A stretch of DNA of 10,927 nucleotides, taken from assembly GCA_048882385.1 (NCBI GenBank), contig JBHLRQ010000100.1:1-10927 (forward strand), in the 5' to 3' direction. The translations under genes were made by a program, and so were the position numbers. Shown in pieces: positions 1 to 8,862 of this stretch. The DNA is from Candidatus Thorarchaeota archaeon. Lineage in GTDB: Archaea > Asgardarchaeota > Thorarchaeia > Thorarchaeales > Thorarchaeaceae. The first letter of the stretch is position 1, and each line of letters starts with the position of its first letter. Under the pieces are notes generated by a model. The model saw nothing but the letters and a program-made list of their open reading frames with translations, searched no databases and was not told the origin of the DNA.

Positions 1-821
1 ATGGTCGCAAACAATGAATAGTCCTCACTAGTGCGATAGAGGTCCCAGACTTCTTCCATGTCAGCTAGTTTTTGTGCGGTTTCGCTTGCAGTGCCTGGTA
101 ATACCTTCATCGTGACAAAGAACTTGATAGGTAGACCAATGCAACCAAAATCTATGTCAATCGAATATCCTATTATCGCCTTCTTGACTCTAAGTTTTAC
201 AATGGCCTTGGATACTGCTGGTTGGCGCATTGGGGGATTCATCGATTTTCCAATAGCTTCTTGTGTCAGTGGAAATGGTTTCTCGGGGGTTGGTTTTTGG
301 CGATGAATAATTCTGAGAAGTTCTATTTCTTTTGAGGTGAGATGCGATTCATCTGATTGATTGGGGAAAATTTTGAACCGGTTTTTCTTGTATGTGGTGA
401 GAATTTGAACAAGACTGTACTTTCCTGATCCGGAGCTTGCTACAACACTATCAACTCTATCGAGCAAGCTCTCAAATGCTCCTTTTCTATCAAATCTGAA
501 AAATCCTATTAGTGAGAACTCACCGGCTATCCCATCTAACGATTCTAGCTCTTCCATTTGTAGAACTTTCTTACTTACATCTAGTTCTCTTGGATTACTC
601 TTCATGAAGAGGATTGTATCTCTCGCACCTTTGACATAGTTTGGATTTACGATTGTTGTGTAGCTTCGAATGATTCCATTTTTGACCAATGTCCTGATCT
701 TTCGTGAAATCCAGTTTCGACTCTTTCCAAGGCTTTGTCCAAGCACCGCAGGAGTATTTCGTGAATTTTGTACAAGTGCTTCAAGAAGTTTAATTTCCGT
801 ATCAGACAATATTGACTGCAT
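1..821 (-). CDS. Tandem (two-module) Lrp/AsnC-family transcriptional regulator, 3' end beyond left edge of window
   Basis: Not in the ORF track; translated by hand from ATG at 821 and open to position 1. MQSILSDTEIKLLEALVQNSRNTPAVLGQSLGKSRNWISRKIRTLVKNGIIRSYTTIVNP is an AsnC-type wHTH, followed by a RAM-like segment (ELESLDGIAGEFSLIGFFRF). A second HTH (LTSKEIELLRII...TQEAIGKSMNPPMRQPAVSKAIVKLRVKKAIIGYSIDIDF) and a second RAM-like segment (EEVWDLYRTSEDYSLFAT) follow. Confidence 0.88.
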   Translation of the reverse strand, partial: MQSILSDTEIKLLEALVQNSRNTPAVLGQSLGKSRNWISRKIRTLVKNGIIRSYTTIVNPNYVKGARDTILFMKSNPRELDVSKKVLQMEELESLDGIAGEFSLIGFFRFDRKGAFESLLDRVDSVVASSGSGKYSLVQILTTYKKNRFKIFPNQSDESHLTSKEIELLRIIHRQKPTPEKPFPLTQEAIGKSMNPPMRQPAVSKAIVKLRVKKAIIGYSIDIDFGCIGLPIKFFVTMKVLPGTASETAQKLADMEEVWDLYRTSEDYSLFAT

Positions 822-908
822 ATTTTTTACCTGTAATTAATGCATTTCATTCCAAATTTCTATGTAGCATTCATATATATTATGCTTTCTGCGAAGCTTG
901 TGATTCAA
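822..908. promoter_or_regulatory. Divergent promoter region between Lrp/AsnC gene and ahcY, with archaeal TATA-like box
   Basis: 87-bp AT-rich spacer. TATATATT at 874-881 lies ~28 nt upstream of the ahcY ATG (909) and is flanked by the inverted repeat AGCAT (866-870)/ATGCT (882-886). A palindrome AATGCATT is at 839-846. Confidence 0.55.
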
Positions 909-2168
909 ATGACTGATTATAAGGTCAAAGATATTGGTCTTGCTGAAGAAGGCAGGATGTTAATCGATTATGCAGAGAAACATATGCCTGTTCTAATGCA
1001 TCTGAGAAAGAAGTATGCCAAGACTCAGCCCCTCAAGGGTATGAAGATTGCAGGATGTCTTCATGTCACAAAGGAAACAGCAGTACTTGTTGAAACGCTT
1101 CGTGCGGTTGGTGCTGATGTTGCTTGGTCGGGTTGTAATCCATTGTCAACTAATGACAAGGTTGCCGCTGGGCTTGCTGCAAATGATGTCCCAATCTACG
1201 CTTGGCACAATCTGAACAATGAGGAATATTATTGGTGTATCGAACAGACACTCAAGTCTGAGCCAACACTTACGCTTGATGATGGTGCTGATTTGATTTT
1301 CACTTTACATAACAAGCACCAAGAACTCATACCAAATCTATACGGCGGATCTGAGGAAACCACTACTGGAGTGATTCGGGTACGTGCAATGGCAGAAGAT
1401 GGTGCACTAAAGTATCCAATCATGGCTGTTAATGATGCTGATACTAAGCATTTGTTCGATAATGTATATGGAACTGGACAAAGCGTATTTGATGGTGTCA
1501 TGAGGGCTTCTGCAATATTGATTGCTGGAAAGACTGTTGTCATCGGTGGTTATGGATACTGTGGTCGTGGGATGGCTGATCGTGCACGAGGACTTGGCGC
1601 TAATGTGATTGTCACAGAGGTTGATCCGGTGCGTGGACTTCAGGCCAGAATGGATGGCTTTAGAGTCATGAAGATGAGTAAAGCAGCACCTGAAGGAGAC
1701 TTGTTCCTCACAGCGACAGGGATGAAAGATGTCATCACTGGTGAGCATATGAAGGTCATGAAAGATGGTGCCATGTTTGGGAATGCAGGACATTACAATG
1801 TTGAGATAAATGAACCAGACCTCATAGCACTCAGTAAAGGTCCAAAGAAGAGAGTGCGTCACGCTCTTGATGAGTATGAATTAAAGGATGGTCGTCGACT
1901 CTATCTCTTGGGTGAAGGCCGGCTAGTTAATCTGGCTGCCGCTGAAGGTCACCCCTCGGAAGTCATGGACCTATCATTCGCGTCTCAGCTCAATGCAATG
2001 ATCTGGATGACCAAAAACGGTAAAGATCTCAAACCAGCAGTCTACGAGTTCCCGAAAGAGCTTGACAATGAAACAGCGATGGCCAAGTTGGAAACCATGG
2101 GTATCACTATAGACAAGTGGACCGAAGAGCAAGAACGTTACGCCCGAGCCTACACAGAAGGAACATAG
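909..2168 (+). CDS. ahcY: S-adenosyl-L-homocysteine hydrolase (adenosylhomocysteinase), 419 aa
   Basis: Canonical motifs GCLH, WSGCNPLST, LDDGADL, EETTTG, KHLFDNVYGTGQS, GYGYCGRG (NAD-binding), GRLVNL and GHPSEVMDLSFA. Start placed at ATG 909 (MTDYKVKDIGLAEEG, a typical AhcY N-terminus) rather than 840. Confidence 0.97.
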   Translation: MTDYKVKDIGLAEEGRMLIDYAEKHMPVLMHLRKKYAKTQPLKGMKIAGCLHVTKETAVLVETLRAVGADVAWSGCNPLSTNDKVAAGLAANDVPIYAWHNLNNEEYYWCIEQTLKSEPTLTLDDGADLIFTLHNKHQELIPNLYGGSEETTTGVIRVRAMAEDGALKYPIMAVNDADTKHLFDNVYGTGQSVFDGVMRASAILIAGKTVVIGGYGYCGRGMADRARGLGANVIVTEVDPVRGLQARMDGFRVMKMSKAAPEGDLFLTATGMKDVITGEHMKVMKDGAMFGNAGHYNVEINEPDLIALSKGPKKRVRHALDEYELKDGRRLYLLGEGRLVNLAAAEGHPSEVMDLSFASQLNAMIWMTKNGKDLKPAVYEFPKELDNETAMAKLETMGITIDKWTEEQERYARAYTEGT

Positions 2169-2178
2169 TTCATTGTGG

Positions 2179-2204
2179 AAGTGGGATATTATTCCCACTT
2201 TCTC
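2179..2204 (+). terminator. Hairpin immediately after ahcY stop (possible terminator or mRNA-stabilising stem)
   Basis: AAGTGGGA (2179-2186), TATTAT loop, TCCCACTT (2193-2200): a perfect 8-bp stem followed by pyrimidines. Confidence 0.5.
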
Positions 2205-2351
2205 ACTTGTCCTAATGCACTAGTGAGCTGTTCTTGAGTAAGAATAAGTAACCTATGGTGAAGTATGTAGACTGATGACAATCATTGAATCTCTTCCAAC
2301 CATTGCGACGTCCAATACTGATTAGTATTCATTTGTTCAATCTGAGGGCCG

Positions 2352-2918
2352 ATGACCAAAATCAAGATCGATCAAAGATATTCTCCATATCAAATGCCTA
2401 GTGTGATTATTGGAACAATTGTGGATGATAGGCCCAATTTCATGATGTGTACTTGGGTCAGTCGAGTAAATCGAGATCCACCTACATGGATGGCTTCTAT
2501 AAATAGAAAACACTACACAATGATTGGTATCAGACAAAAGAAAGTATTCAGCCTGAACTTTCCCCCAGCCAGCCTTATTCAACTGGCTGACTATATAGGA
2601 ACTAACTCAGGACGAGTAGTTGATAAATCTAAATTGTTCACCATATTTAATGGTGAAACAGAAGCTCCTATGATTGAAGAGTGTGTCCTTAATATGGAAC
2701 TCGAAGTCAAGGATATTATTGAACTTCCTGATCACTTCATAGTTCTTGGAACCGCAGTGACATCTTTTGTTGATGAAGAGAATATGACTGAAAACAAACC
2801 TGACATGAAGAAAATGAATCCGGTCATATATACTGGAGCTCAAAAACAACCAACATATTGGACACTAGGAAAAAAGCTTGGTGATGCCTTTCAAATTGGA
2901 AAGGAATTCGAAAAATAA
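2352..2918 (+). CDS. Flavin reductase-like / flavoredoxin family FMN-binding split-barrel protein, 188 aa
   Basis: Motifs PSVIIGT, RPNFMMCTW, PP..ASINRKHYT..GI...KVFSLNFP, ADYIGTNSG..VDKS, APMIEECVLNMELEV and DHFIVLG match flavin reductase-like proteins. Confidence 0.9.
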   Translation: MTKIKIDQRYSPYQMPSVIIGTIVDDRPNFMMCTWVSRVNRDPPTWMASINRKHYTMIGIRQKKVFSLNFPPASLIQLADYIGTNSGRVVDKSKLFTIFNGETEAPMIEECVLNMELEVKDIIELPDHFIVLGTAVTSFVDEENMTENKPDMKKMNPVIYTGAQKQPTYWTLGKKLGDAFQIGKEFEK

Positions 2919-2995
2919 GAGATGAATTTGCAAAGACATTTCTTTCAGATCCTGTATAATGGGCAGTTACTCTGTAAAAGAGTTGGTGCGGGCAG

Positions 2996-4666
2996 TCATT
3001 TGTCTGGTCGGCTCAGATGTTTTGCACCAAAATAACACATTATCAATCCCAGAGATGTCATAGGAAGAACTGATAGTATAATAGGTGTAAGAACCGTAGT
3101 GAGCAAGCTTCCAAGAATAGGTTCCAACATCTGCAAGAAATAGCTAGTTCCTACTGTCAAAGGCAGAAGAGTCGTTGCGAATATGATTATTACAATGAGA
3201 AATGTATTCAGAAGATATGATGATGACTTTGTGTCATCATATGTGGGATTCAGTGATACTACTCCAGTTCCTATTAGTGAAGCACCAACTGTTAAAGTGA
3301 AACCAAATATTAGCAATACTATTGGAATGAGAGGCTCGAATAGATAGAAAATGCCGATACCAATTCCAGGAACAATTGCCAGCGGAATAGCTGAAATTGC
3401 GTAGGCTGAAATTCTTGCTTTTACGTATTGAAGTGCTCCATCAGGACTACTTTGGATAATCCAGAGATGATTTCTGCTCTCAAGAAAACCAATCCCGCCA
3501 AAGGTAAGTCCCCCGATGAAGGGAAAGGTCATGATCATTATTACAATGCTGATGAGTAATGCTAAGATAGGGGGAAATTCAATTGAACTGATAGCACTGA
3601 ATATTATGACAATCACTGGTATGATTCCTGACATCACTACTCCAAGAAGAATTTTTGCTACATTCTGGGGTCGACGGAAAATATCCTTGAAACTGGATAC
3701 AACAAGAGTCCCAAAAGGTCCTGGCCAAATACGGCGAATGAATCTTAGAATCGCATTTTCATGCCCAGCAGTTTTAGCAGATTCAAGTCGAGGGCCAACT
3801 TCAATTGTGAAGACTCGATCAGCAGTGATATAACCAATTACAATGAATGAAAATCCAAAAATCACTAGTAAAATGAGGTTCATCTCTAAATTGAAACCTA
3901 ATGAGGCAACTAATGATGAGATTTCTGCATCTCCCAAATTAATTCCGTTGAATATCACAGTTGCCCAAGATGCGATATCAGCCGCCCAAGTGGATGGGAT
4001 TAACAATAGTAAGTTAGATTCCATAAGTGAAGATACTGGTCCTGCGAACCATACAAGTCCCATCATTGGAGTCATATAAACAAGCATCAACACAGCTGAC
4101 AGAACTCTAGCAATTGAGTCTCCTCTTTGAGATTTGTTAAGAGCTGATCGCAGCGCGGAAGATATCACTGTGGAAAACCACAATGTCACTATTGACACTA
4201 AGATTAATGCCACATACATCAACACCTGTCCAGCTAATGAAACTTGGAACACGGCAACAAAAGGAGCTACCAAGATAGGTGATAAAGCAAGTATGGCTAT
4301 ACTGTATACTGGCAATCTAGCAACAAACTTCCCAATTATTATGTCCCACGGCTTGACATTGCAGCTAATGATAATCTCCCAGTCACTGAGTCGCACCTCT
4401 TGAAGTGCATAAGAAAGAGGATAGATCAAAATAGTAATCCAGAGAAATAAAAGAACCGAGCGCATAAATCCACTCATATTCAATCTGAGCAATTCCACGA
4501 TTTCAGGGCGAGAATTGAGAAGTACTCTGATTATTATAGGAACGAAAACGAAAGCCCATACTACTAGAAAGACCATGGCACCAAGAAAGACTTGTAATCT
4601 TCTACCTCTGTATTTAGAACTACTGGATAGGAATTCTGCTTTAGCAATTGCTCGCCAGTGTTGCAT
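2996..4666 (-). CDS. Polytopic membrane protein, putative ABC exporter permease (ABC-2-like, two-half architecture), 556 aa
   Basis: Roughly 12 hydrophobic segments, with permease-like loops (WEIIISCNVKPWDIIIGKF; LWIIQSSPDGALQYVKAR). It starts 2 nt downstream of an ABC-ATPase C-terminal remnant on the same strand. Confidence 0.75.
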   Translation of the reverse strand: MQHWRAIAKAEFLSSSSKYRGRRLQVFLGAMVFLVVWAFVFVPIIIRVLLNSRPEIVELLRLNMSGFMRSVLLFLWITILIYPLSYALQEVRLSDWEIIISCNVKPWDIIIGKFVARLPVYSIAILALSPILVAPFVAVFQVSLAGQVLMYVALILVSIVTLWFSTVISSALRSALNKSQRGDSIARVLSAVLMLVYMTPMMGLVWFAGPVSSLMESNLLLLIPSTWAADIASWATVIFNGINLGDAEISSLVASLGFNLEMNLILLVIFGFSFIVIGYITADRVFTIEVGPRLESAKTAGHENAILRFIRRIWPGPFGTLVVSSFKDIFRRPQNVAKILLGVVMSGIIPVIVIIFSAISSIEFPPILALLISIVIMIMTFPFIGGLTFGGIGFLESRNHLWIIQSSPDGALQYVKARISAYAISAIPLAIVPGIGIGIFYLFEPLIPIVLLIFGFTLTVGASLIGTGVVSLNPTYDDTKSSSYLLNTFLIVIIIFATTLLPLTVGTSYFLQMLEPILGSLLTTVLTPIILSVLPMTSLGLIMCYFGAKHLSRPDK

Positions 4667-4668
4667 TC

Positions 4669-4955
4669 TTATTCACTCCGCCAATCAAGTAATCGGGTCT
4701 TATCCACTTTTTCATCCATAATCTTGATGTAAGCTTGTTGCAAATCATCTGCCCCATATGCATCCATAATTCTTTGAGGGGCTCCCACCTCCACCAAAAC
4801 ACCTTCATTGACTATGCCTATTGTATTACATACTTCTTGAGCAAAAGAGGTCAAATGTGTACAGATGAAGAATGTTGTCTTGGTTTCTTCGGACAGTGCG
4901 AGAATCAGATCTTTCAGTCGAATAACTAGCTGCTTATTGATAGAGTCCACTTGAA
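4669..4955 (-). pseudogene. 3' remnant of ABC transporter ATP-binding subunit
   Basis: IRLKDLILALSEETKTTFFICTHLTSFAQEVCNTIGIVNEGVLVEVGAP corresponds to the post-D-loop helix, H-loop (ICTH) and C-terminal strands. Just upstream, in a shifted frame, TCA AGT GGA CTC TAT CAA TAA GCA GCT (SSGLYQ*AA) resembles a decayed D-loop (TSGLDPxAA). Walker A, signature and Walker B motifs are absent. Confidence 0.85.
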
Positions 4956-5328
4956 GAAACACCCACTACATTTTAGCCCCTTCCTGCATCCGCATAAATG
5001 CAGGTCAATTACGAATAGAAAGTAATTCTCTACTAACCCTACTAACTATTCTAATACTAAATTATCCATTTTCTTTATTTGGGTTTTTCTGTAGATACTA
5101 GAATCCATCTTATAGATTTAAGAATAGATTATCCACTTCTGTATGAAGTGATCGAAAAGGAAGCAAGCCCAAATGATACTATTTCGTTTGTTTCACCTGT
5201 GGAAACAGATGTTATGCAAACAAGAACAGAGCGATTAACGCAGCAGTCCGTTTTATTACGCTTACAATGGATTCATAGAGTTGGCTGAGAGATATGGTGC
5301 GTCTCTTAATTCATGTTGGTTAGGAAAG

Positions 5329-5616
5329 ATGTCAGAGGAAATCCAGAAAATAGCTATGTTGATCTACGATGCAATCTTTGAGGACAAGTCATCAGTAGAG
5401 ATAGAGGGTGAGAAGTATCGCATTGAAACGACCTTGAAGAGCAAGGTCCGACTAGTGAAGTATGGAGGTCTGACGTTCATCGAGCAGAACCCGTTCAAGT
5501 CCTCCCAGTGGGGGAAGGAGGCTCGGGAGGGGCACCAAATCATGTAGGTGATGAAGGGAAGACAGTATCTAGCCAGAGTCAGGGATGGCAAGTTCTTGGA
5601 TCTGAAAAAGAAGTAA
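5329..5616 (+). pseudogene. Small hypothetical protein (95 codons) interrupted by in-frame TAG at 5545-5547
   Basis: MSEEIQKIAMLIYDAIFEDKSSVEIEGEKYRIETTLKSKVRLVKYGGLTFIEQNPFKSSQWGKEAREGHQIM*VMKGRQYLARVRDGKFLDLKKK*. Protein-like sequence continues for 22 codons past the TAG to TAA at 5614-5616. Confidence 0.65.
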
Positions 5617-5656
5617 AGAGAGATTCTTGTTATTATAATTTGCTTAAATACAGAAG

Positions 5657-5767
5657 TTGGACCTCTGCATGTCCTGTTCTTCCTGTAGTGACCTGATTGT
5701 AGGATGGATTCTTCACATGTCCTCCAGAATAGCCAGAAACAACAGATTCGACTCCTTTCAACTGCTG
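5657..5767 (-). pseudogene. msrA: Internal fragment of peptide methionine sulfoxide reductase A
   Basis: [37 protein letters not shown] matches the MsrA segment (GV...SGY.GG...NP.Y..V..G.TGHAE). The catalytic GCFW motif upstream and the whole C-terminal part are missing. Confidence 0.9.
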
Positions 5768-6161
5768 TATCAGAGAAAAGAGAGCATTTAGCATGAACTT
5801 TCCTCCAGCCAGCCTCATTCAACTAGCTGACTACATAGGAACTAACTCAGGAAGAGCAGTTGACAAATCTACTTTGTTCACCATATTTTATGGTGAAACA
5901 GAAGCTCCTATGATTGAAGAGTGTGTCCTTAACATGGAACTCGAAGTCAAGGACATTATTGAATTGCCTGATCACTTCATAGTTCTTGGAACTGCAGTGA
6001 CATCTTATGTTGATGAAGAGAACATGACTGTAAACAAACCTGACATGAAAAAGATGAATCCAGTCATATATACTGGAGCTCAAAAACAGCCAACATATTG
6101 GACACTAGGAGACAAGCTCGGTGATGCTTTTCAAATAGGAAAGGACCTCGAAAAATTATAG
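5767..6161 (+). pseudogene. 5'-truncated second copy of the flavin reductase-like gene
   Basis: Aligns without gaps to 2527 onward (offset 3240) and lacks the first ~58 codons. The ATG at 5793 corresponds to an internal CTG (Leu) of copy 1, so it is unlikely to be a true start. Confidence 0.9.
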
Positions 6162-6181
6162 ATGAATTTGCATAGACATTT
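5767..6181 (+). repeat. Direct repeat of 2527-2941 (flavin reductase 3' two-thirds plus ~20 nt downstream)
   Basis: Manual ungapped alignment gives about 37 mismatches in 415 nt (~91% identity). Confidence 0.95.
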
Positions 6182-6219
6182 TGACCGTTACTCTTTGGAT
6201 ACAGGATAGGAATGTGATT

Positions 6220-6401
6220 AGCTCAACGCAATGATCTGGATGACCAAAAACGGCAAAGACCTCAAACCAGCAGTTCACGATTTCCCGAAGGACCTTGACA
6301 ACGAAACTGCAATGGCCAAGTTGGAAACCATGGGTATCTCCATTGACAAGTGGACTGAAGAGCAAGAACGTTATGCTCAAGCGTACGCAGAAAGAACTTA
6401 G
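6220..6401 (+). pseudogene. ahcY: Duplicated 3' end of ahcY (relic 1; direct repeat of 1987-2168)
   Basis: Encodes LNAMIWMTKNGKDLKPAVHDFPKDLDNETAMAKLETMGISIDKWTEEQERYAQAYAERT* versus LNAMIWMTKNGKDLKPAVYEFPKELDNETAMAKLETMGITIDKWTEEQERYARAYTEGT*. Ungapped at offset 4233, with about 22 mismatches in 182 nt (~88%). Homology ends exactly at the TAG. Confidence 0.95.
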
Positions 6402-6536
6402 GATAATAGAGTGTGATTTGAAATTCTAATCACTTCAATTTCTTCAAATTCCTGCAATGGGCAGTGTTTATCGTTTCTACTTTCTTGCGATTTAGATTTC
6501 TATGACAGCAGGATTGACCTGATTAGACAACTGAAA

Positions 6537-7532
6537 TCAACCTTCTTTTGCTAGACTTGGCGGCAAATGCAAAGCAAACTCACAAACCACGTCGCCATTA
6601 ATGACCGATTTTAGAACTTCAACTCTGACTGGCTGACCAAGCACTGCCTCCCAGAAGTTCTTGAAGTAACCAGCACTACACCCACAAAAGACAGGATTGA
6701 TAGGTTGATCTTCTTCTTTCAGAGCTTCTCGAATCCAAGGATTGTGACAGAAACAATAGCGTTTCATCTTGTCATCTGTTGTATGAATGAATTGCTTTGC
6801 CAAATATGGAATCTTTGTGATTATTACACGATTCCCATCACGAATCCCAGCCTCAATCGTTGGGCGAGATCTAACGTAAGAAATGACGTCCTCGTCGATT
6901 TCTTGTATGAAGAATAGAGTATCTTCCTCAAAATGATTCTGTAGTGTTGCAACAAGATTTTCATGACGCAGCTTCAAAAACTCATCAATACTATTGGTTT
7001 CAGAGAACAGTTGAGATGGCGCTACATAGGATTGAGTGTACCTGTTTCTTAATCCAACTTCGAAGAATGTTTTTGCCGTTTCTTCACCAAACTTTGTTAG
7101 GAACCGCTCAACTAGCTTCTTTGTAATCTCAGGTTTGGACTCAGGACGTATTCCTAGTGGGGGAATTCCGATGCCCTCGAATATATCATCCCTCACCTGC
7201 TGATCGAATTCTTCATTCAGGCGATTATAGAAGTTCTCAATCATCTCTCTACCATCAATTATCTCGAGTGTGGCAATAATCAGTTCTTTATTATTCTGGA
7301 AAATGCCAAATCTATACAAAGAGATATAGTTCTCAATCGTGTTCGTAGTGTCTGCTATAAGTGTGTCAGAGAAATCATACAGGTCATTGTAAGAAGCAGT
7401 TTCAATTTTCTTTCCAGATTTCAACAGGAAATCTCTGAATCTTCTGACAATGCTGATAGACTCTTTAATCTGGTCCTTGTTCAACTTTTGACCTTTAAGA
7501 TATTCACCGAAACTGTTCAAATTTGGTTTCAT
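6537..7532 (-). CDS. Hypothetical protein (331 aa) with C-terminal Cys-motif domain, DUF6144/V4R-like
   Basis: The C-terminus YCFCHNPW...FCGCSAGYFKNFWEAVLGQPVRVEVLKSVINGDVVCEFALHL resembles V4R-like/DUF6144 proteins (recognised from memory, not searched). The likely start is ATG 7532 (MKPNLNSFGEYLK); the upstream extension to 7691 looks non-coding. Confidence 0.75.
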   Translation of the reverse strand: MKPNLNSFGEYLKGQKLNKDQIKESISIVRRFRDFLLKSGKKIETASYNDLYDFSDTLIADTTNTIENYISLYRFGIFQNNKELIIATLEIIDGREMIENFYNRLNEEFDQQVRDDIFEGIGIPPLGIRPESKPEITKKLVERFLTKFGEETAKTFFEVGLRNRYTQSYVAPSQLFSETNSIDEFLKLRHENLVATLQNHFEEDTLFFIQEIDEDVISYVRSRPTIEAGIRDGNRVIITKIPYLAKQFIHTTDDKMKRYCFCHNPWIREALKEEDQPINPVFCGCSAGYFKNFWEAVLGQPVRVEVLKSVINGDVVCEFALHLPPSLAKEG

Positions 7533-7689
7533 ATTACAGCAACAAGGCGATTTTCTAATATCAAGGCCTAACAACGCAAGATTAGAGAGAGAAAACCTAC
7601 ATGCCAAGTTTCGCTTTAGAACAGGGTACCAAACCCCTATGTCTGTTTTTCGAGCAAGGAGCTGACTGGCGCATTGGTTGTCGAATACC

Positions 7690-7743
7690 AAGTGGACACA
7701 GGAACAGGAGATTTATGCTCGAGCATATGCAAAAGAATCTTGG
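7690..7743 (+). pseudogene. ahcY: Older, shorter relic of the ahcY 3' end (relic 2; corresponds to 2115-2168)
   Basis: KWTQEQEIYARAYAKES(W) versus KWTEEQERYARAYTEGT*: 11/17 identical residues, ungapped. TGG at 7741-7743 sits exactly at the position of the ahcY TAG stop. Confidence 0.8.
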
Positions 7744-7827: not shown

Positions 7828-8862
7828 TCATTCAAAATGATTTCTCGCTACGACGACATCGGAAAGAACTTGTGTGTTCTGATTTCTAATTACGTCGGAT
7901 TCAGCTAGCAAGCCCGAGTTGATCAATATTTCTTCCAGTTTTCGACGAAGAGGGAGCATATTTGCAATAACTCTAGGATAAGATACATAATCCTCGATTG
8001 ATTTGATGAATTTAGCTTCTTTGAGATCCTGAATAACAGCTACCCCTCTACCTGGACGGTCAATGATTAGGCCAACATCAACGATTGGTTCATTGGTGGT
8101 TACACTTGACCACCAAAATTCATCCGGATATTTCTGGTATAACTCTATTATGAGATCCCGACCTTTTATTTGTGATTCATCAAAATGGATTTTCAGACGA
8201 TATTCCATATCTCCCAATGCGAATATATCGTATCCAACAGTAATGTGGATGCCTCCCTCTTCTTCTAACTCGCGTAAGATATTCCGAACTCGTCTTGGGG
8301 TGAAACCAGTATCTCTTGCTATTTGGGAAACTGGCATTCGAGCATCTTGATATAAACACCTCAGCACTCGCAATTGATGCTGAGTAAACGTGACTTTCTT
8401 TCCTCGAGTATTAAGATAAAAGTTCGGAGGTTTGTTTGGAAATAGAAAATCAACAGGCCTAATTTCTACCTCGATGGCTCCATTGAGCTCTTCGAGATTT
8501 TTTTTGAGTCCTAACGTTTCAGAAGCACCTGCAACCATAGCCCAGTACTCATAGCGCATATCACCTGTGCGATAGATTTCACATATTACATGCTGTCTAG
8601 CTACCTGTTTCATGAACTCAATGACTTGCTCAGTGCCATCAGTAGAGATAACACCACATACATGCTCTGCACCGAGCATCTCCATGCTCACAATAATTCC
8701 GAAGCCAGTTATGACTTCTTGTTCACGAAGTCTGTTAATTCGGTTTTTTACAGTATTAGATGACAAATTGAATTTTTGTGCAAGTGTATGGTAGGACTGC
8801 CTCGCATTACCTGTAAATTCGCAAATCAAAGCCCAATCTATTGGATCCAATCTACTCACCAC
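7828..8862 (-). CDS. Tandem (two-HTH) Lrp/AsnC-family transcriptional regulator, ~344 aa
   Basis: N-terminal LDPIDWALICEFTGNARQSYHTLAQKFNLSSNTVKNRINRLREQEVI and a second HTH FTQHQLRVLRCLYQDARMPVSQIARDTGFTPRRVRNILRELEEEGGI. The start is GTG at 8862 or 8859. Confidence 0.9.
   Translation of the reverse strand: MVSRLDPIDWALICEFTGNARQSYHTLAQKFNLSSNTVKNRINRLREQEVITGFGIIVSMEMLGAEHVCGVISTDGTEQVIEFMKQVARQHVICEIYRTGDMRYEYWAMVAGASETLGLKKNLEELNGAIEVEIRPVDFLFPNKPPNFYLNTRGKKVTFTQHQLRVLRCLYQDARMPVSQIARDTGFTPRRVRNILRELEEEGGIHITVGYDIFALGDMEYRLKIHFDESQIKGRDLIIELYQKYPDEFWWSSVTTNEPIVDVGLIIDRPGRGVAVIQDLKEAKFIKSIEDYVSYPRVIANMLPLRRKLEEILINSGLLAESDVIRNQNTQVLSDVVVARNHFE

Follow-up and report, generated by a model that had tools for sequence, protein, structure and literature searches.

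In a Thorarchaeota genome, the intact ahcY gene for adenosylhomocysteinase is followed by two displaced copies of its own 3' end, all in the same orientation, with length dropping and divergence rising with distance from the gene. We consider it probable that this array arose through import of foreign DNA anchored by homology in ahcY and joined illegitimately at one end, followed by homologous recombination between the resulting repeats. The analysed stretch (the window) is the entire contig JBHLRQ010000100.1 (10,927 nt) of a metagenome-assembled genome (MAG; GCA_048882385.1, labelled G000), a 3.7-Mb, 95%-complete assembly with 4.9% contamination (Table 1).

Table 1. Features of the window, positions 5' to 3' on the forward strand
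Feature	Position	Strand	Basis or remark
ahcY, adenosylhomocysteinase, 442 aa, intact	840..2168	+	conserved anchor gene
T1, working 3' tail of ahcY, reference copy	1987..2168	+	
F1, flavin reductase-like gene, 188 aa, intact	2352..2918	+	PF01613, E 1e-23
556-aa protein	2996..4666	-	no family match in Pfam or NCBIfam
ABC-transporter ATPase, C-terminal fragment, 5'-truncated	4669..4962	-	NCBIfam, C-terminal profile positions only
msrA (methionine sulfoxide reductase), internal fragment, both ends cut	5660..5766	-	tblastn with relatives' MsrA ORFs and nucleotide alignment
F2, displaced 3' relic of flavin reductase, about codon 59 to 23 nt beyond the stop	5767..6181	+	
Spacer between F2 and T2, 38 nt	6182..6219	.	
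T2, displaced ahcY tail, codons about 383-442	6220..6401	+	
Cargo gene D, 384 aa	6537..7691	-	weak DUF6144 match
T3, shortest and oldest ahcY tail relic, codons about 425-442, stop position mutated	7689..7740	+	
Double Lrp/AsnC-type HTH regulator	7828..8862	-	Pfam HTH_24 and HTH_AsnC

Tail copies and cargo in the window

The ahcY product matches the NCBIfam equivalog NF004005 (E 1e-185) and the Pfam families AdoHcyase and AdoHcyase_NAD, and it is 80-96% identical to the copies of relatives. T2 agrees with T1 at 160 of 182 nt (87.9%), ungapped and in frame, with TAG as its first codon. T3 (52 nt) is likewise in frame and matches T2 at 37 and T1 at 35 of its 52 positions, and 12 of the 17 residues of its translation match the AhcY C-terminus. 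Among 500 first-order Markov versions of the window none reached the 37/52 match (best 52-nt match: mean 27.1, sd 1.2, maximum 32), and the best other 52-nt match within the real window was 27. Alignment and randomisation thus confirm the three copies that a sequence-only reading of this DNA had described as co-oriented and increasingly short and diverged; its position for T2 on the forward strand holds, while T3 now lies at 7689-7740 instead of 7690-7743. Elsewhere in the 3.7-Mb assembly no further ahcY-tail copy was found. A search for a tRNA or other RNA as the target gave no tRNA genes and no Rfam families.

The tails bound two cargo blocks, 2169-6219 and 6402-7688. These bounds agree with the earlier reading to within 1 nt, but the first block is not the single unit it had been taken for: it consists of a flavin-reductase cassette and a further 3.2-kb patchwork inserted into it, with a displaced tail of its own. 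It holds a nested direct repeat, additional to those described before, in which 2527-2941 and 5767-6181 are identical at 378 of 415 nt (91%). The repeat spans the last two thirds of the flavin-reductase gene and 23 nt beyond it, and its copies enclose the 3.2-kb block, which is made up of gene fragments. At junction 5766/5767 the internal msrA fragment that closes the first block is fused to the flavin-reductase gene at its codon 59, the two sharing 2-3 nt of microhomology; this is the one illegitimate junction traced to both parents. On other contigs, the loose ends of public-run contigs, msrA is intact and runs past both 5660 and 5767. The same block includes the truncated ABC ATPase, to which the homologue in locus L063 aligns over residues 179-258 of 258 alone, so the N-terminal part is missing, and cargo thus ends inside genes. 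Judging from its 34% identity to the gene downstream of the ABC ATPase in L063, the 556-aa protein is probably the permease partner of this ATPase.

A strong hairpin (about 2176-2203; -19.7 kcal/mol, z -4.5) lies 3' of T1. The order of tail and then flavin reductase recurs in G013, G020, G011 and L067, and a diverged version of the 38-nt spacer joins the 3' end of the reductase gene to a tail relic in the public run X6. Cargo gene D is a divergent extra paralogue of a family that occurs in every genome of the genus; in each of the 28 genus genomes its nearest relative is at most 41% identical (a 35% copy lies on contig C1 of G000), and with no close relative in these 28 genomes its donor context is not traceable. 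The regulator beyond T3 is likely the original neighbour of ahcY: the same gene lies directly 3' of ahcY in G004 and G005, and on contig C109 of G022 it follows a short T3-like relic.

The copies differ from each other mainly at synonymous sites. For T1 and T2 we obtained dS 0.645 and dN 0.051 (dN/dS 0.08), for F1 and F2 dS 0.29 and dN 0.049 (dN/dS 0.17), and the seven tail/relic pairs of relatives with a computable ratio gave 0.06-0.08. Because of this pattern in the tail pairs, each relic would once have served a working ahcY in another lineage. Local tandem duplication of the ahcY and reductase ends in this genome, with later decay, would also leave co-oriented direct repeats that shorten and diverge with distance, and the msrA/reductase junction has the geometry of a duplication joint because the two genes adjoin in relatives. 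However, mostly synonymous divergence, at dS as high as 0.65 and 0.29, is not expected from the decay of dead copies; moreover, the sequences between the copies are mutually unrelated, and what follows F2 is no copy of what follows F1. We rejected tandem duplication on dN/dS and regard it as highly improbable.

The array in public contigs and in relatives

Contigs from other public runs were compared with the window across its junctions. Those of run X5, from a different study, span 2168/2169, 2941/2942 and 5766/5767 with 0 differences, and contigs of X6 and X7 span 6219/6220. We did not count 7688/7689 as bridged, since the listed pieces give 22 letters (X2, X7) or 8 (X6) on one side, and we left out an X2 piece across 5766/5767 with 29 letters on the left. 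With four junctions bridged independently, the array is not an assembly chimera of co-occurring strains, the outcome that the earlier reading had named as one that would undo it. The metagenome does contain related strains, visible as variant contigs and loose ends, and the MAG carries the contamination given above. Against this stand the bridging contigs, junctions that lack long shared sequence to mislead an assembler (2-3 nt at 5766/5767), and analogous arrays in 10 other genomes of the genus, so we find a chimera barely conceivable.

One X7 contig fuses 2649 to 5890 and represents the form without the 3.2-kb block. The left part of its reductase gene resembles F1 and the right part F2, with the changeover inside the longest stretch over which the repeat copies are identical (43 nt). 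Cargo-bearing contigs are present in the same run. The innermost block is therefore polymorphic in natural samples, as recombination between repeat copies would make it; together with the order of the co-oriented remnants, this bears out the earlier suggestion that the youngest block lies nearest the gene. Among the contigs listed none showed the 3.2-kb block joined back to itself as a circle, and among the runs listed no RNA run carried the window sequence. Run X6 has no cover over 3042-5318, which we did not take as absence of the block.

Displaced ahcY tails were found in 11 of 28 genus genomes and in three loci of other Thorarchaeota, and the genes downstream of ahcY vary between species, as the sequence-only reading had predicted for an insertion hotspot. 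Many cargo units are a single small gene, each placed after a tail and hairpin in a cassette-like manner. The exchange of the working tail can be followed in G006. Its ahcY body is closest to that of G010 (91% over a segment that stops about 70 nt short of the break), but its attached tail is only 67% identical to that of G010, and the G010 tail is the best match of the relic downstream in G006. On ahcY, the left and right junctions of G006 coincide to about 10 nt.

The earlier reading had also noted that the relics of the window begin at different points; in the relatives the starts cluster, which it had not anticipated. Of 19 relics with an internal boundary, eight are 207-219 nt long and start inside a 13-nt span, three measure 77-79 nt and three 52-61 nt; outside these classes fall the window's T2 (179 nt) and four others. 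Two relics that reach contig ends (G012:C62 and G016:C248) and the working tail G006_T1 were excluded from the count. The sequence left of the clustered relics is unrelated in each case, and by eye the alignment showed no motif common to the left flanks of the main class. The clustering may be partly a detection bias, because the estimated starts sit just upstream of the best-conserved codon patches, and it keeps a site-specific component alive.

The main class of relics begins 4-16 nt upstream of a second feature of the gene. Seven relatives carry in ahcY a conserved splicing-type insert of 31-32 nt (32 in L065), which the ahcY of the window lacks, and excising it restores the HPSE-VMD reading frame. 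The insert and its surroundings form a candidate bulge-helix-bulge fold, with two 3-nt bulges, a 4-bp helix between them and flanking helices. This fold has 18 pairs with 90.7% of cells paired, six of them with compensatory changes, and was reached by 0 of 500 shuffles, while slid controls gave 29-54%. We rejected the insert as a repeated mobile element, since it is confined to ahcY and absent elsewhere in the fetched loci and in G000. A bulge-helix-bulge intron is known from the cbf5 pre-mRNA of Crenarchaeota, as outlined in Yokobori et al. 2009 (PMC2738675). Like that intron, the candidate is a short insert in a protein-coding gene, with the motif cut by the tRNA-splicing endonuclease, whose removal would restore the frame; unlike it, the candidate is a prediction from sequence, belongs to ahcY in the Asgard phylum and sits where relics begin. 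In the literature searched (main articles) we found no description of splicing-type introns in Asgard protein genes.

How the array may have formed

The ahcY 3' end would, in the reading we favour, be a recurrent entry point of foreign DNA in Thorarchaeota. DNA of a diverged relative, carrying its own ahcY tail and downstream DNA, would pair with the resident ahcY by homology, and its far end would be joined illegitimately, through microhomology of a few bases, either within the resident gene or directly behind it. The gene would remain intact with the imported tail, and the resident tail would become a dead relic downstream. Repeated rounds would give an array with the oldest relic farthest away (T3, then T2, then T1), and the flavin-reductase gene within the first block would later have been struck by the same process. 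Homologous recombination between two tail copies could then remove cargo, and the reverse reaction could re-insert it. We infer the order of these molecular steps, whether the DNA arrives as a linear fragment or as a circle, and its route into the cell. Neither DNA uptake nor recombination of this type is so far known from these uncultured archaea.

Alternatively, site-specific integrative elements or cassettes could have entered at defined sites in the ahcY 3' end, each bringing a replacement tail, with the mobilising recombinase or site-specific (homing-type) nuclease encoded elsewhere or lost and the cargo frayed by later deletions. Relic-length classes with unrelated left flanks, the single ahcY position of both G006 junctions, the start of the main class next to the insert point and the many cassette-like small genes after tail and hairpin all agree with this, and bacteria are well known to harbour elements that rebuild the 3' end of the gene they target. 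However, no enzyme was found. The window ORFs have no catalytic recombinase domain in Pfam or NCBIfam, the 118 ORFs of 20 relatives' loci gave no catalytic integrase, transposase or homing-endonuclease domain at E<=1e-5, a re-scan of 43 unexplained ORFs at E<=0.05 gave no recombinase, and neither recombinase nor homing endonuclease was found in 33 ORFs downstream of ahcY in seven further loci. In place of such domains, the window ORFs and these 194 ORF scans around ahcY and the relics gave only HTH-type cross-hits of Lrp regulators and one weak zinc-ribbon hit (E 0.024). PF00589 had no match in the whole MAG, with 14 of 14 control genomes positive. The earlier remark that no integrase is in view thus extends to the loci of relatives. 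A recombinase acting in trans is still conceivable, because MAGs often lack mobile elements. An integron was rejected as well: the scans found no tyrosine recombinase, and what recurs between the cargo units is a gene tail and not an attC-like site.

Further points speak against site-specific entry. The window relics (179 and 52 nt) fall outside the main class, the cargo ends cut through genes, and the identical core of T1 and T2 is at most 27 nt, the longest identical run between them, although a core could have eroded with age. The same scar also occurs at other genes of this genome. On contig C34 a relic of the etfA tail lies 1.6 kb downstream (80% nt identity, dN/dS 0.11), and on C136 a UDP-glucose dehydrogenase gene lies between two relics of the pyruvate-kinase tail (90%, dN/dS 0.10). 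With the flavin reductase included, scars at unrelated genes would require several enzymes, or one without sequence specificity; they indicate a general process for which ahcY serves as a hotspot and not as a dedicated attachment site. Hence we consider site-specific entry possible but rather unlikely. The two mechanisms had previously been judged equally plausible; a site-specific component survives from that judgement, and homology-anchored import fits the window better in view of the microhomology junction, the gene-fragment cargo ends and the divergence of the tails under purifying selection.

Known systems and meaning for Thorarchaeota

A close likeness exists to the sequential displacement arrays of Rhs, CDI and T6SS effector loci, in which orphaned 3' regions and immunity genes are strung together and for which homology-facilitated illegitimate recombination was proposed as the origin (Kirchberger et al. 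2017, PMC5361080). There too, a conserved upstream anchor receives a new 3' part with downstream genes, the old end is shifted and the newest unit lies nearest the gene. The variable 3' part of those loci is a toxic payload and the immunity gene is kept by selection, whereas here the conserved end of a housekeeping enzyme is duplicated, the cargo genes are unrelated and the host is an Asgard archaeon.

The array of ahcY tails also resembles a bacterial process in which one homologous anchor and one microhomology join trap foreign DNA. Homology-facilitated illegitimate recombination has reportedly been described in naturally transformable bacteria by de Vries and Wackernagel in 2002, Prudhomme et al. 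in 2002 and Meier and Wackernagel in 2003. In the bacterial process, which was shown experimentally, recipient DNA beyond the anchor is deleted; in the process proposed here from sequence, the join lies inside the anchor gene, and so the tail is duplicated. Integrative elements that occupy gene 3' ends and supply a replacement end are known from tRNA genes, as islands, and from icd, with e14 and phage 21; they include tandem arrays and satellites that lack an integrase, such as tycheposons. As with them, the gene is restored, the old end displaced and blocks stack in tandem at one locus, but the integrase and the identical att core at both ends that mark those elements were not found here, where cargo ends inside genes. 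Our literature search, again of main articles, found no description of ahcY or Thorarchaeota integration hotspots.

A bolder idea, which we think unlikely as a whole, is a recombinase-free cassette system in Thorarchaeota. Duplicated tails of conserved genes would act as portable homology arms, and tail-flanked genes would loop out and re-enter ahcY, etfA, pyk or other genes of other strains and species through ordinary homologous recombination. Breaks at the very site where some lineages have a protective splicing-type mini-intron would direct such entry to ahcY. If true, this would tie mini-intron homing to gene capture in the prokaryotes most closely related to eukaryotes. Should the clustered relic starts at the candidate mRNA mini-intron site prove real, they would connect two otherwise separate phenomena.

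Asgard archaea have large, gene-rich genomes, but with hardly any of them in culture little is known of how new genes reach them. This locus lets repeated gene gain at one housekeeping gene be read from the sequence, with its events clearly ordered and no mobile-element enzyme, and gain or loss of its cargo is still segregating in nature. The same scar at other genes points to general homology-driven gene flow between related lineages, and relics of gene tails could be used as markers to map this flow in metagenomes.

Tail copies and cargo downstream of ahcY

The array of ahcY tails in the window is real. Two displaced relics, T2 and T3, follow the working 3' end of the gene (T1) in the positions collected in the table. 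The match of T3 to T2 exceeds chance, the best match in 500 randomised windows having a mean of 27.1 and a maximum of 32 identical nucleotides. No further ahcY-tail copies were found in the whole assembly of the source MAG G000 (3.7 Mb in 256 contigs, 95% complete, 4.9% contamination), in which the window makes up one entire contig (C100, 10,927 nt), and the window held neither tRNA genes nor Rfam families. The repetition of the ahcY 3' end noticed in the sequence-only reading was thus confirmed.

Between the intact flavin-reductase gene (F1) and its displaced 3' relic (F2), the sequence is a patchwork of genes and gene pieces. The 556-aa gene in this stretch is probably a permease, and the approximately 700 nt at 4963-5659 gave no match. 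At 5766/5767, the msrA piece abuts codon 59 of the reductase in an illegitimate junction, with 2-3 bases common to the two. Gene D belongs, as a divergent extra paralogue, to a family found in all 28 genomes of the genus, with identities of at most 41%. As this regulator lies directly 3' of ahcY in the compared genomes G004 and G005, the double Lrp-type regulator of the window is likely the original ahcY neighbour. In a third genome, a C-terminal fragment of an Lrp-type regulator (residues 269-326) was seen between ahcY and the flavin-reductase gene (L038, G010:C239, 17992-18165), which suggests that in G010 a reductase cassette was inserted into the regulator gene.

Features of the ahcY array, the ahcY insert in relatives and repeat pairs at other genes
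Feature	Position	Strand	Remarks
ahcY, intact	840-2168
Strong hairpin			after T1
F1, flavin-reductase gene, intact	2352-2918		after the hairpin
556-aa gene	2996-4666	minus	no family match
ABC ATPase of the 556-aa gene	4669-4962		C-terminal 80-97 residues only
msrA, internal 107-nt piece	5660-5766	minus
F2, copy of the last 415 nt of F1 (2527-2941)	5767-6181		91% identity; ends 38 nt before T2
T2, copy of the last 182 nt of ahcY	6220-6401		160/182 nt identical, without gaps, in frame
Gene D	6537-7691	minus	after T2
T3, copy of the last 52 nt of ahcY	7689-7740		37/52 nt identical to T2
Double Lrp-type regulator			after T3
ahcY insert, L062	11055-11085
ahcY insert, L066	11055-11085
ahcY insert, L075	~11064-11094
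ahcY insert, L087	~6759-6789
ahcY insert, L065	~11046-11077
ahcY insert, L044 (G006:C67)	~2243-2273
ahcY insert, L076	~8408-8438
Fer4-EtfA-like gene, last 134 nt and copy	G000:C34:21668-21801 and 23294-23427 (L139:1169-1302, 2795-2928)		co-oriented, copy 1.6 kb downstream
Two pyruvate-kinase C-terminal-domain relics	G000:C136:3642-3805 and 5355-5518 (L140:1143-1306, 2856-3019)

Displaced tails in relatives and their origin

With the full AhcY as query, matches were obtained in 39 of 41 genomes, many with additional C-terminal fragments, and the last 113 residues matched in 23 of the 28 genus genomes. When a fragment was counted only if its left boundary fell within the contig, which left out G012:C62 and G016:C248 as both reach contig ends, at least one displaced tail was present in each of 11 of the 28 (G000, G006, G009, G011, G012, G013, G015, G020, G021, G022 and G042), with four in G015 and two in G020. 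Relics also follow ahcY in L062, L063 and L067 among 29 further Thorarchaeota loci, in which L059 duplicates the G013 record and L065 carries a reductase relic. The genes 3' of ahcY vary by species: a regulator alone, an FG-GAP protein, a reductase, hydrolases, methyltransferases, NosD-like proteins, small membrane proteins or unknowns. The proposal that the ahcY 3' end is an insertion hotspot, with variable cargo and displaced tails expected in related genomes, is therefore supported and extended. In G013 the order is ahcY, flavin reductase, relic, and we infer that this arrangement was the precursor of the window's first cargo block (2169-6219).

The reductase relic of L065 (13057-13545) and F2 come from two species and have left boundaries approximately 45 nt apart; the flavin-reductase gene is therefore a recurrent breakpoint in its own right.

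T1 and T2 are separated by 15 synonymous and 7 non-synonymous steps (dS 0.645, dN 0.051, ratio 0.08), and F1 and F2 by a dS of 0.29 and a dN of 0.049 (ratio 0.17). In relatives, the seven tail/relic pairs with a computable ratio, including a relic-versus-relic pair within G015, gave 0.06-0.08. These low ratios argue that the tails were formerly working genes of other lineages. A duplicate made in place and left to decay was rejected as their source, a dN/dS of 0.06-0.17 not being expected from a decaying copy.

The direction of exchange can be followed in G006. Its ahcY body is closest to that of G010 up to the break (91%, then 82%); in the attached tail, identity to G010 falls to 67%, and the best match for the downstream relic is the tail of G010. 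Body and relic thus track G010 and the attached tail does not, so that the import is the working tail and the native end is the relic. For the window, a tree of these short sequences placed T1 and T2 as mutual nearest neighbours (support 86/96), a pairing that identifies the donor as a close, unsampled relative.

Relic starts and a conserved insert in ahcY

The left flanks of the relics are unrelated to one another. Relic lengths in relatives (n = 19) fall at 207-219 nt (eight), 77-79 nt (three) and 52-61 nt (three), with five others, among them T2 of the window (179 nt). The main class begins 4-16 nt upstream of a point 203 nt before the ahcY coding end, at which a 31-nt insert (32 nt in L065) is conserved in ahcY of seven relatives, each a Thorarchaeota species. 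The insert falls precisely between the codons for His-Pro-Ser-Glu and Val-Met-Asp, shifts the frame and includes a stop codon; its removal gives the conserved reading across the two. It is absent from the window's own ahcY, and no copy was found outside ahcY in the sequence data examined.

In six of the seven sequences, the insert and its exon flanks fold as a bulge-helix-bulge motif of 18 pairs, with 90.7% of cells paired, compensatory changes at 6 pairs and none of 500 shuffles equal to it. This fold, together with the reading restored on removal, makes the insert a candidate tRNA-type intron in mRNA; otherwise AhcY would be split. An mRNA intron of tRNA type is reported from crenarchaeal cbf5 (PMC2738675), and our literature search found no description of tRNA-type introns in Asgard protein genes. 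The coincidence of relic starts with the insert site may mark a break-prone or enzyme-targeted position. A detection bias may also contribute to it, as the estimated starts lie immediately upstream of the best-conserved codon patches.

Probable recombination at ahcY and similar scars at other genes

Population data were taken from Logan contigs, not raw reads. The window stretch was present, at least in part, in 18 runs of 7 studies, nine of which held at least half of the sampled words. Run X5 comes from another study than that of the probable source, and its contigs span 2168/2169, 2941/2942 and 5766/5767 with 0 differences; 6219/6220 is spanned by contigs of runs X6 and X7; for 7688/7689, no contig among the pieces listed bridged the junction by the 31-letter rule.

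In one X7 contig of 1,907 nt, 2649 is joined to 5890, with 3,240 nt absent. Of the 15 sites left of the joint at which F1 and F2 differ, 13 agree with F1, one agrees with F2 and one with neither; to its right, the contig matches F2 and T2 at ~99%. The joint itself falls within the repeat's longest identical stretch, of 43 nt. This pattern is the signature of F1-F2 homologous recombination, and the recombinant could represent loss of the block or, in reverse, insertion of a circle. Contigs containing the 3.2-kb block are present in the same run, and the block is therefore polymorphic. In an X6 contig that lacks the block, a diverged spacer of 37 nt connects an F1-like gene end with the tail relic, which is present there as a third allele. 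The X7 contig matches the window from 2155 on, and its preceding 773 nt are unlike ahcY, which hints at another junction in that strain, 14 nt before the ahcY stop.

Catalytic domains of integrases, transposases and homing endonucleases were absent from the window's own ORFs and, at E<=1e-5, from 118 ORFs at 20 loci. Nor did any appear in 33 ORFs at seven additional loci, or when 43 ORFs left unexplained were scanned again at E<=0.05. This agrees with the earlier remark that no integrase is in view. The sole related matches were HTH cross-matches of regulators and one weak zinc-ribbon match. The tyrosine recombinase family PF00589 had 0 matches in G000, a result limited by the incompleteness of the MAG (95%), and was positive in 14 of 14 control genomes, four of them archaeal.

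Integrase-borne elements exist that restore the 3' end of their target gene; they have their outcome in common with the ahcY array, but two of their defining features, an integrase and ends that leave genes uncut, were not found here. The closest analogue is known from T6SS and Rhs loci, where effector 3' ends are displaced sequentially and homology-facilitated illegitimate recombination has been proposed (PMC5361080). In the available text of Wu et al. 2022 (PMC8813620), which describes Asgard mobile elements at tRNA genes, ahcY is unmentioned.

When the MAG was compared with itself, 114 direct-repeat pairs with nearby copies emerged, of which 27, picked for high identity and short length, were inspected; two of these are the pairs of the ahcY locus. 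Of a 104-nt repeat on C23 (32131-32234 and 33901-34004, 81%), one copy lies in a 536-aa ORF, 27 nt in from its 5' end, and the other upstream, outside long ORFs; this may be a displaced 5' stub. Contig C121 carries, across 7 kb (55-7056), approximately eight copies of a 55-100-nt repeat with 78-91% identity. The pyruvate-kinase relics on C136 (90% nt, dN/dS 0.10) lie where a glycosyltransferase cluster begins and enclose a UDP-glucose dehydrogenase gene, and no full pyruvate kinase gene was found in the stretch examined. On C34, the copies of the etfA-like gene end (80% nt, dN/dS 0.11) are separated by two unknown genes. With the same type of scar at the etfA-like gene and in the pyruvate-kinase relics, the tail-displacement process is not restricted to ahcY.
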